Positions 8,601 to 8,615 of a stretch of DNA of 13,322 bases are shown here, piece by piece (the stretch's first letter is position 1; each line of letters starts with the position of its first letter). This DNA comes from a virus (taxonomy: Duplodnaviria; Heunggongvirae; Uroviricota; Caudoviricetes), in IMG/VR virus record IMGVR_UViG_2740892369_000029, one strand, 5' to 3'. Both the position numbers and the translations under genes were made by a program. The notes beneath the pieces are model-generated. The model was not told the origin of the DNA. It made no database searches and saw nothing but the letters and a program-made list of their open reading frames with translations.

Positions 8601-8615
8601 TGGTGTCCCCTGCAG
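8601..8615 (-). other. Putative att core: 15-nt copy of the 3' end of tRNA-Arg (argW-like), CTGCAGGGGACACCA on the minus strand
   Basis: Plus strand TGGTGTCCCCTGCAG is the reverse complement of the T-stem 3' strand, acceptor 3' strand, discriminator and CCA of tRNA-Arg(CCU) as I recall it. Identity to the tRNA stops after 15 nt, so this is a partial repeat and not a tRNA gene. It lies between the excisionase stop (8689) and the integrase start (8425). Confidence 0.5.

Follow-up and report, generated by a model that had tools for sequence, protein, structure and literature searches.

Positions 8600-8615 of the window (by which we mean the whole stretch of 13,322 nucleotides that was analysed) very probably form, judging from comparative sequence data, an internal attachment site at which two elements, inserted in tandem at the argW tRNA-Arg gene in E. 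coli O26:H11, meet head to tail. Read along the minus strand, the array runs from argW and a first core through a prophage (intS at its near end, torI at its far end) to a second core, then through an island (integrase at its near end, YeeU at its far end) to a third core, the native flank and cscB. Three cores are present, the arms flanking the window copy can each be assigned to one of the two elements, and each element occurs separately in other genomes. The locus thereby has the features of a tandem array, namely at least three direct copies of a tRNA 3'-end core with an intact tRNA gene at one end, elements that are found alone elsewhere, an empty site in other genomes, and homology breakpoints (8600/8601 and 8615) that fall at the core. 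The torI-side arm is of the KplE1 type and the integrase-side arm and the integrase itself are not, which makes the site at 8600-8615 a hybrid with one half from each element. An earlier note on this DNA had proposed either that a prophage right end abuts a second argW-specific island or that the junction is attP-like. The former is what the chromosome contains, with intact argW and intS at the far end of the prophage and a third core closing the island, and each of the two elements sits alone at argW in hundreds of genomes.

Genomic context of the window

Chromosomes of E. coli O26:H11 and its close relatives match the whole window at 100% identity, at least 80% of the window is found in one place in 62 genomes, and the O26 reference strain 11368 shows the same arrangement as the window. 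Several of the hits to other O26 genomes are split into two to four pieces owing to differing IS600 or IS3 insertions in the region. In the RefSeq record of strain 97-3250, the minus strand carries lambdoid/P22-like early-left genes followed by torI, the core and a tyrosine integrase gene that is broken by an internal stop. Past the integrase lie a fragment of PapB, an IS3 with a frameshift, a gene for an HsdR-N-domain protein and IS66 copies, and further on genes for a GTPase, Ag43, antirestriction, JAB, DUF987 and YeeU proteins and finally an oligosaccharide MFS transporter, beyond which strain DEC9B has genes of the cscK and cscA types. In strain 97-3250 the right end of the window (13322) stops 2 bp short of nested IS600 copies in the prophage early region (L001 31325-33748). 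The same strain has a Stx2a prophage with its own tyrosine integrase, whose start is separated by 196 bp from the argW 5' end (NZ_CP027599.1 1775783-1802862; L002 21784-48863), so that mobile elements lie on both sides of the tRNA gene and three of them are clustered at the locus.

The attachment core and its three copies

An exact-match scan with argW taken from the matching chromosome identified TGGTGTCCCCTGCAG, at 8601-8615 on the plus strand, as the reverse complement of argW 61-75. These are the last 15 nucleotides of the gene, CCA included, and the match to the window stops there, which confirms against argW of the same chromosome the earlier recognition of the 15-mer as the argW 3' terminus with identity ending after 15 nt. 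ARAGORN found no tRNA gene in the window, as expected for a fragment of 15 nt. Adding the A at 8600 to the 15-mer yields the 16-nt core CTGCAGGGGACACCAT on the minus strand (8600-8615; argW 61-75 plus T), which is the duplicated 16-nt core bordering KplE1/CPS-53 (PMC2951348). The 16-mer occurs once in the window even when two mismatches are allowed, against a chance expectation of 0.01 matches.

The earlier note had also called for a search of the full genome for the intact tRNA-Arg gene and for further copies of the core. The chromosome contains both, and a pattern search found three core copies that all lie in the same orientation and mark the borders of the elements: one within intact argW (L002 21513-21528), one at the window junction, which is the middle of the three (L001 26600-26615, window 8600-8615), and one at the far end of the island (L001 1222-1237). 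The last of these lies 101 bp past the YeeU gene, beside the native flank and cscB, and reads CACCAG. The attR of the DEC9B prophage retains the native G after CCA, which places the IntS crossover within the 15 nt that are common to argW.

The prophage side of the junction

On the high-coordinate side the core is followed by the P arm of the prophage attR (8616-8688, minus strand, from the torI stop to the core) and by torI itself (8689-8889, minus strand), the recombination directionality factor (RDF, or excisionase) of a KplE1/HK620/Sf6-type module, annotated as torI in RefSeq. The likeness to the attR of K-12 KplE1/CPS-53 extends from the 16-nt core to TorI (66 of 66 amino acids identical, 100%), the 73-nt P arm (67/73, 92%), an IntS that is 99% identical and stands beside argW, and the location of the RDF and the integrase at opposite ends of the element. 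In addition, the 160-nt interval between argW and intS in O26 matches the P' arm of the K-12 attL at 97% identity. The P arm holds GGGTAAAATA-type repeats, which the HK620 record annotates as attP repeats, and positions 8616-8688 fall inside the 135 bp, from the torI 3' end to just past the core, that make up a functional attR (PMC3509656). With an exact core, torI beside the P arm, and the cognate intS and P' arm at intact argW in the matching chromosome, the site has the sequence and layout of a KplE1-type attR. It is unlike the K-12 attR, whose core fragment is annotated as the pseudogene pawZ, in what comes beyond the core: chromosomal DNA (the dsdC side) in K-12, the integrase arm of a second element here. 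The elements themselves also differ, KplE1 being a 10-kb remnant and the O26 prophage a near-full-length P22-like genome.

Positions 8890-13322 (minus strand) are annotated as the early-left region of a P22-like (HK620/Sf6-type) prophage transcribed toward torI, and include anti-RecBCD, Ea22-like and DUF551 genes. Beyond the right end of the window come the replication and lysis genes of the prophage, its P22-type head genes, a tailspike, an acyltransferase and an intact intS, and then the intact tRNA-Arg gene argW. The prophage is thus about 43 kb long and of the HK620/Sf6-like P22 family, and its own IntS and P' arm lie 43 kb from the window core, at intact argW. In strain 97-3250 it bears IS600 insertions, and it may be defective in other respects.

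The island side of the junction

On the other side of the core, a 174-nt interval (8426-8599, minus strand) separates it from a P4-like tyrosine recombinase gene (7235-8425, minus strand); excisionase, core and integrase do therefore follow one another in a single orientation, as the earlier note had described them. This interval is the integrase-proximal (P') arm of the island and the island half of the hybrid site. It gives no alignment with the K-12 KplE1 P' arm, and in genomes that have the island alone the same arm abuts intact argW at 100% identity. The integrase is 48% identical to IntS and has the same P4-like set of Pfam domains (Arm-DNA-bind_3, PF13356; Phage_int_M, PF22022; Phage_integrase, PF00589). 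Its reading frame is interrupted by a single C-to-A change at 7760 that turns the TAC codon of Tyr222 into TAA (7760-7762), a stop that is identical in strain E2865. In FDAARGOS_536, which has the island alone, an intact integrase of 396 amino acids lies next to argW, and over 1,191 nt the change at 7760 is the sole difference between the two alleles.

Positions 1-7234 are assigned to island cargo from annotation, Pfam domains, GC content and the common gene order with FDAARGOS_536. They comprise a hypothetical gene (481-1497), a gene for a 786-aa HsdR-N-domain protein (2141-4501), a frameshifted IS3 (4678-5817), a PapB/FocB fragment (5814-5969) and an AT-rich non-coding stretch (about 6000-7200; GC 26-31%). 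Past its integrase FDAARGOS_536 repeats the gene order of the window, with the PapB fragment, the IS3, the HsdR-N protein under an identical accession and the hypothetical gene, and its island DNA is 99.7-99.8% identical to that of the window. The description of the island as decayed was consequently overstated, one nucleotide being all that distinguishes its integrase from an intact allele. The 1.2 kb between the PapB/FocB fragment and the integrase (6001-7200) is without an open reading frame of at least 50 aa, and is also found in the island-alone copy. In the case of the two cargo proteins, PADLOC returned only weak matches for the 786-aa protein, to its nuclease-like N-domain, and none for the other. 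In FDAARGOS_536 (L005 26626-36952) the HsdR-N and hypothetical genes are followed by genes for DEAD/DEAH helicase, ATP-binding and TerB-N-domain proteins, possibly a cluster of the defence type; the O26 strain 97-3250 has IS66 elements and other genes after the hypothetical gene instead.

Taken over its whole length the element is a CP4-type island of about 25 kb with the HsdR-N protein, IS elements, Ag43 and a YeeU antitoxin. It resembles other CP4-type islands of E. coli in its integrase domains, its tRNA 3'-end repeats and its distal module of GTPase, Ag43, antirestriction, JAB, DUF987 and YeeU genes. It is unlike them in that its integrase is inactivated by a nonsense codon and its attL faces a prophage rather than the tRNA gene. 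As a P4-like island it has the expected domains and a tRNA-derived repeat 174 nt away, with an integrase that is interrupted by the TAA at codon 222. A comparison of the two ends of the island for common arm-type motifs gave no shared 8- or 9-mers. The far-end repeat is longer by 4 nt, which reach into the T loop (ATTCCTGCAGGGGACACCA).

The native sequence on the downstream side of argW (L001 1040-1221, minus strand, from the last core to cscB) is about 67% similar to the integrase-proximal arm of the island, with stretches such as GAAATCTACC matching at 10/10 positions. We considered on this ground whether a third remnant lies past the left-end core, and rejected it: in 2,624 genomes intact argW is directly joined to the sequence that lies beyond the left-end core, and this sequence is thus the native flank. 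The similarity is more likely to reflect an island that carries argW-downstream-like DNA, and together with the longer far-end repeat it suggests that such sequence forms part of the island attP.

Distribution among E. coli genomes

Examination of 5,426 complete E. coli genomes separated the junction into its components. The empty site, in which intact argW is directly followed by the native flank, is that of the 2,624 genomes already mentioned. The island is alone in 279 genomes (argW directly joined to the island arm and integrase) and the prophage is alone in 368, DEC9B included (torI, P arm and core directly on the native flank), while the exact hybrid junction (window 8300-8900) is found in 67. 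Homology is confined to positions 8300-8615 in island-alone genomes and to 8600/8601-8900 in those of the KplE1 type (among them K-12 strains), and the core is the only segment common to both. Three genomes present the reverse order, in which the YeeU end of the island is followed by the core, P' and intS. These are H128 (NZ_CP145679.1 3308714-3309555), H129 and H130, where a YeeU-type end, the core, the KplE1 P' arm and intS succeed one another, and from them it follows that arrays at argW can form in either order.

DEC9B has a closely related, mosaic P22-like prophage between argW-intS and cscB, without the island. Many of its proteins are identical to those of the O26 prophage and it has the same early-left pseudogenes; the mosaicism is located in the replication, immunity and nin regions.

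Alternative explanations for the junction

Short GC-rich strings that look like tRNA can arise by chance, and the 15-mer could in principle be such a match to a tRNA 3' end, without any role in recombination. With only 0.01 matches expected per window, with a string that is the same as a published and experimentally used core (PMC2951348), with three copies standing exactly at the predicted borders of the elements and with homology breakpoints that coincide with it across thousands of genomes, we regard a chance origin as extremely improbable. A true attP, belonging to a single phage that is circularly permuted or otherwise inserted, has the gene order on its side. The RDF and the integrase lie at opposite prophage ends in a module conserved among argW-integrating phages (PMC2951348, PMC3509656). 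When the ends of the O26 prophage are joined in silico (torI-P-core-P'-intS), the product gives a contiguous 96-97% match over 1.1 kb to Sf6, HK620, HK633, N7, HF4s and other phages, and in HK620 the matched region is annotated with the 16-nt attP core and with attP repeats on its flanks. Since these free phages carry torI, core, P' and intS contiguously, RDF, core and integrase in succession is the normal free-phage order, and the attP of HK620 and Sf6 (torI/hkaC/gene 18, attP, int) resembles the window both in this order and in its torI-side sequence. It differs in what a KplE1-type attP has on the integrase side of the core, that is, the P' arm and intS: at the window core the adjacent integrase is only 48% identical to IntS, the arm bears no relation to the P' arm of KplE1, and both belong to another element. 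The cognate intS and P' arm are 43 kb away at argW, and in 279 genomes the integrase side is joined to argW without any phage. The integrase half having been exchanged for that of the neighbouring island, an attP of one single element is excluded on the arms, and such a reading of the locus is very improbable as a whole; of the attP-like junction put forward in the earlier note the gene order stands, and a true attP does not, the arms coming from two elements. The two findings which that note had named as contrary to its proposal, a 15-mer without a match to a tRNA 3' end and a single element with its att sites elsewhere, were not encountered.

Within the tandem array itself, the order of arrival has to be considered separately, as the final structure is identical for either order. 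It is possible, if somewhat unlikely, that the prophage came first, and that the island later entered the 15-nt argW fragment at the prophage attR (the equivalent of the K-12 pawZ) or was precisely lost from strains like DEC9B. That strain does hold a closely related prophage directly on the native flank with no island. The near identity of the island to copies with an intact integrase removes the need for it to be old, and the three genomes with the reverse order imply that more than one core copy is usable or that the elements can arrive in either order. Being mosaic, however, the DEC9B prophage could have been acquired independently, greater mobility is to be expected a priori of infectious P22-like phages than of an island, and the bias of 67 to 3 fits a phage entering the intact tRNA gene of strains that already bore the island. 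Considering both the excess of the observed order (67 genomes against 3) and the greater mobility of the phage, we favour the order in which the island probably arrived first and the phage then entered the intact argW copy. The older age that had been attributed to the island is hence plausible; as a firm statement it goes too far, given that the same structure results from either order and that the reverse order also exists.

Inverted pair and argW T-arm relic

The partial inverted partner of the core that had been noticed about 18 nt away is complementary to it at 8 of 8 positions: TCCCCTGC (8606-8613) lies in the core and GCAGGGGA (8632-8639) in the P arm of the phage, and a spacer of 18 nt separates them (8606-8639 overall). 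The pair is conserved in the P arms of K-12 and HK620 with a spacer that varies, and an equivalent, shifted pair, CCCCTGCA ... TGCAGGGG, is found at the core of Klebsiella phage Chronis (L009, about 920-960). Its retention in K-12, HK620 and Chronis makes it a feature of the phage att site and not of the tandem event, and hints at a conserved role for it within that site.

Just upstream of torI, TTGCAGGTTCGATTCC (8909-8924, minus strand) is an exact match to argW 46-61, a T-arm segment that in argW itself directly adjoins the core on its 5' side. The phage module thus contains all of the last 30 nt of argW, but in two blocks, with torI and the P arm in the 293 nt between them. The T-arm fragment is conserved in K-12 CPS-53 and in HK620, where it overlaps an annotated cII-dependent 'phage integration' promoter. 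Klebsiella phage Chronis, whose module is 78% identical, has no such fragment upstream of its excisionase, and the relic is accordingly not universal in the wider family. We also scanned viral contigs for the uninterrupted 30-mer TTGCAGGTTCGATTCCTGCAGGGGACACCA, which in a free attP could represent the ancestral state of the split sequence: among the matches listed, 111 of 120 are complete argW genes of the host, located where prophages end, and the remaining nine are contig-end cut-offs or slightly divergent full tRNA genes. The relic may be the remnant of an older, longer att site. That it (argW 46-61) and the core (61-75) meet exactly in tRNA coordinates suggests a nested-junction origin for the module, although we consider it doubtful that the torI-attP-intS module of KplE1, HK620 and Sf6 arose in fact from a nested or tandem att junction, with torI and the P arm becoming fixed inside an older and longer argW-derived site. 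If this were true, hybrid junctions in tandem arrays would be raw material for new combinations of RDF, att site and integrase.

A model for the tandem array and its implications

The prophage and the island both cross over inside the 15 nt that end argW, and each integration therefore restores the 3' end of the tRNA and leaves one more copy of the core behind. The middle core thus serves twice, as the prophage attR with the torI-side P arm and as the island attL with the other arm. Tandem integration of prophages and islands, at tRNA genes or at other integration sites, is common in EHEC, where five such sites have been described in O157:H7 clade 8 (PMC9997748). Those arrays and the present one are alike in their direct att cores, in the intact tRNA gene at one end and in being made of elements found singly elsewhere. 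Nothing essential differs between them; here the partners are a phage and an island with different integrases and one 15-nt crossover segment in argW.

The conservation of the P arm, the core and the RDF leads us to infer that the hybrid attR is still usable, in which case IntS, TorI and IHF could excise the prophage by recombination between the attL at argW and the hybrid attR. Such an event would leave argW joined to the island, which is the configuration of the island-alone genomes. Against this expectation, the P arm departs from that of K-12 at 6 of 73 positions, and island DNA has taken the place of the chromosomal half of attR. The island, for its part, would be immobile because of the nonsense codon in its integrase. 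The interval between torI and the island integrase was searched for a terminator-like site and none was found. In tandem arrays of this kind, transcription reading on from torI could link the expression of the island integrase to induction of the phage, although we regard this too as doubtful.

There is earlier knowledge of the KplE1 core, of the module with torI and intS split apart, of the pawZ-type tRNA fragment at the K-12 attR and of tRNA sites occupied in tandem, and the locus is part of published genomes; what is gained is an annotation and no new concept. It sets the end of the prophage at 8615 in this region of the O26:H11 chromosome, and attributes the HsdR-N protein, the IS3 and the AT-rich DNA to a separate argW island and not to the phage. 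It also predicts a prophage able to excise alone, leaving in place an island that would be held there by a single nonsense mutation.
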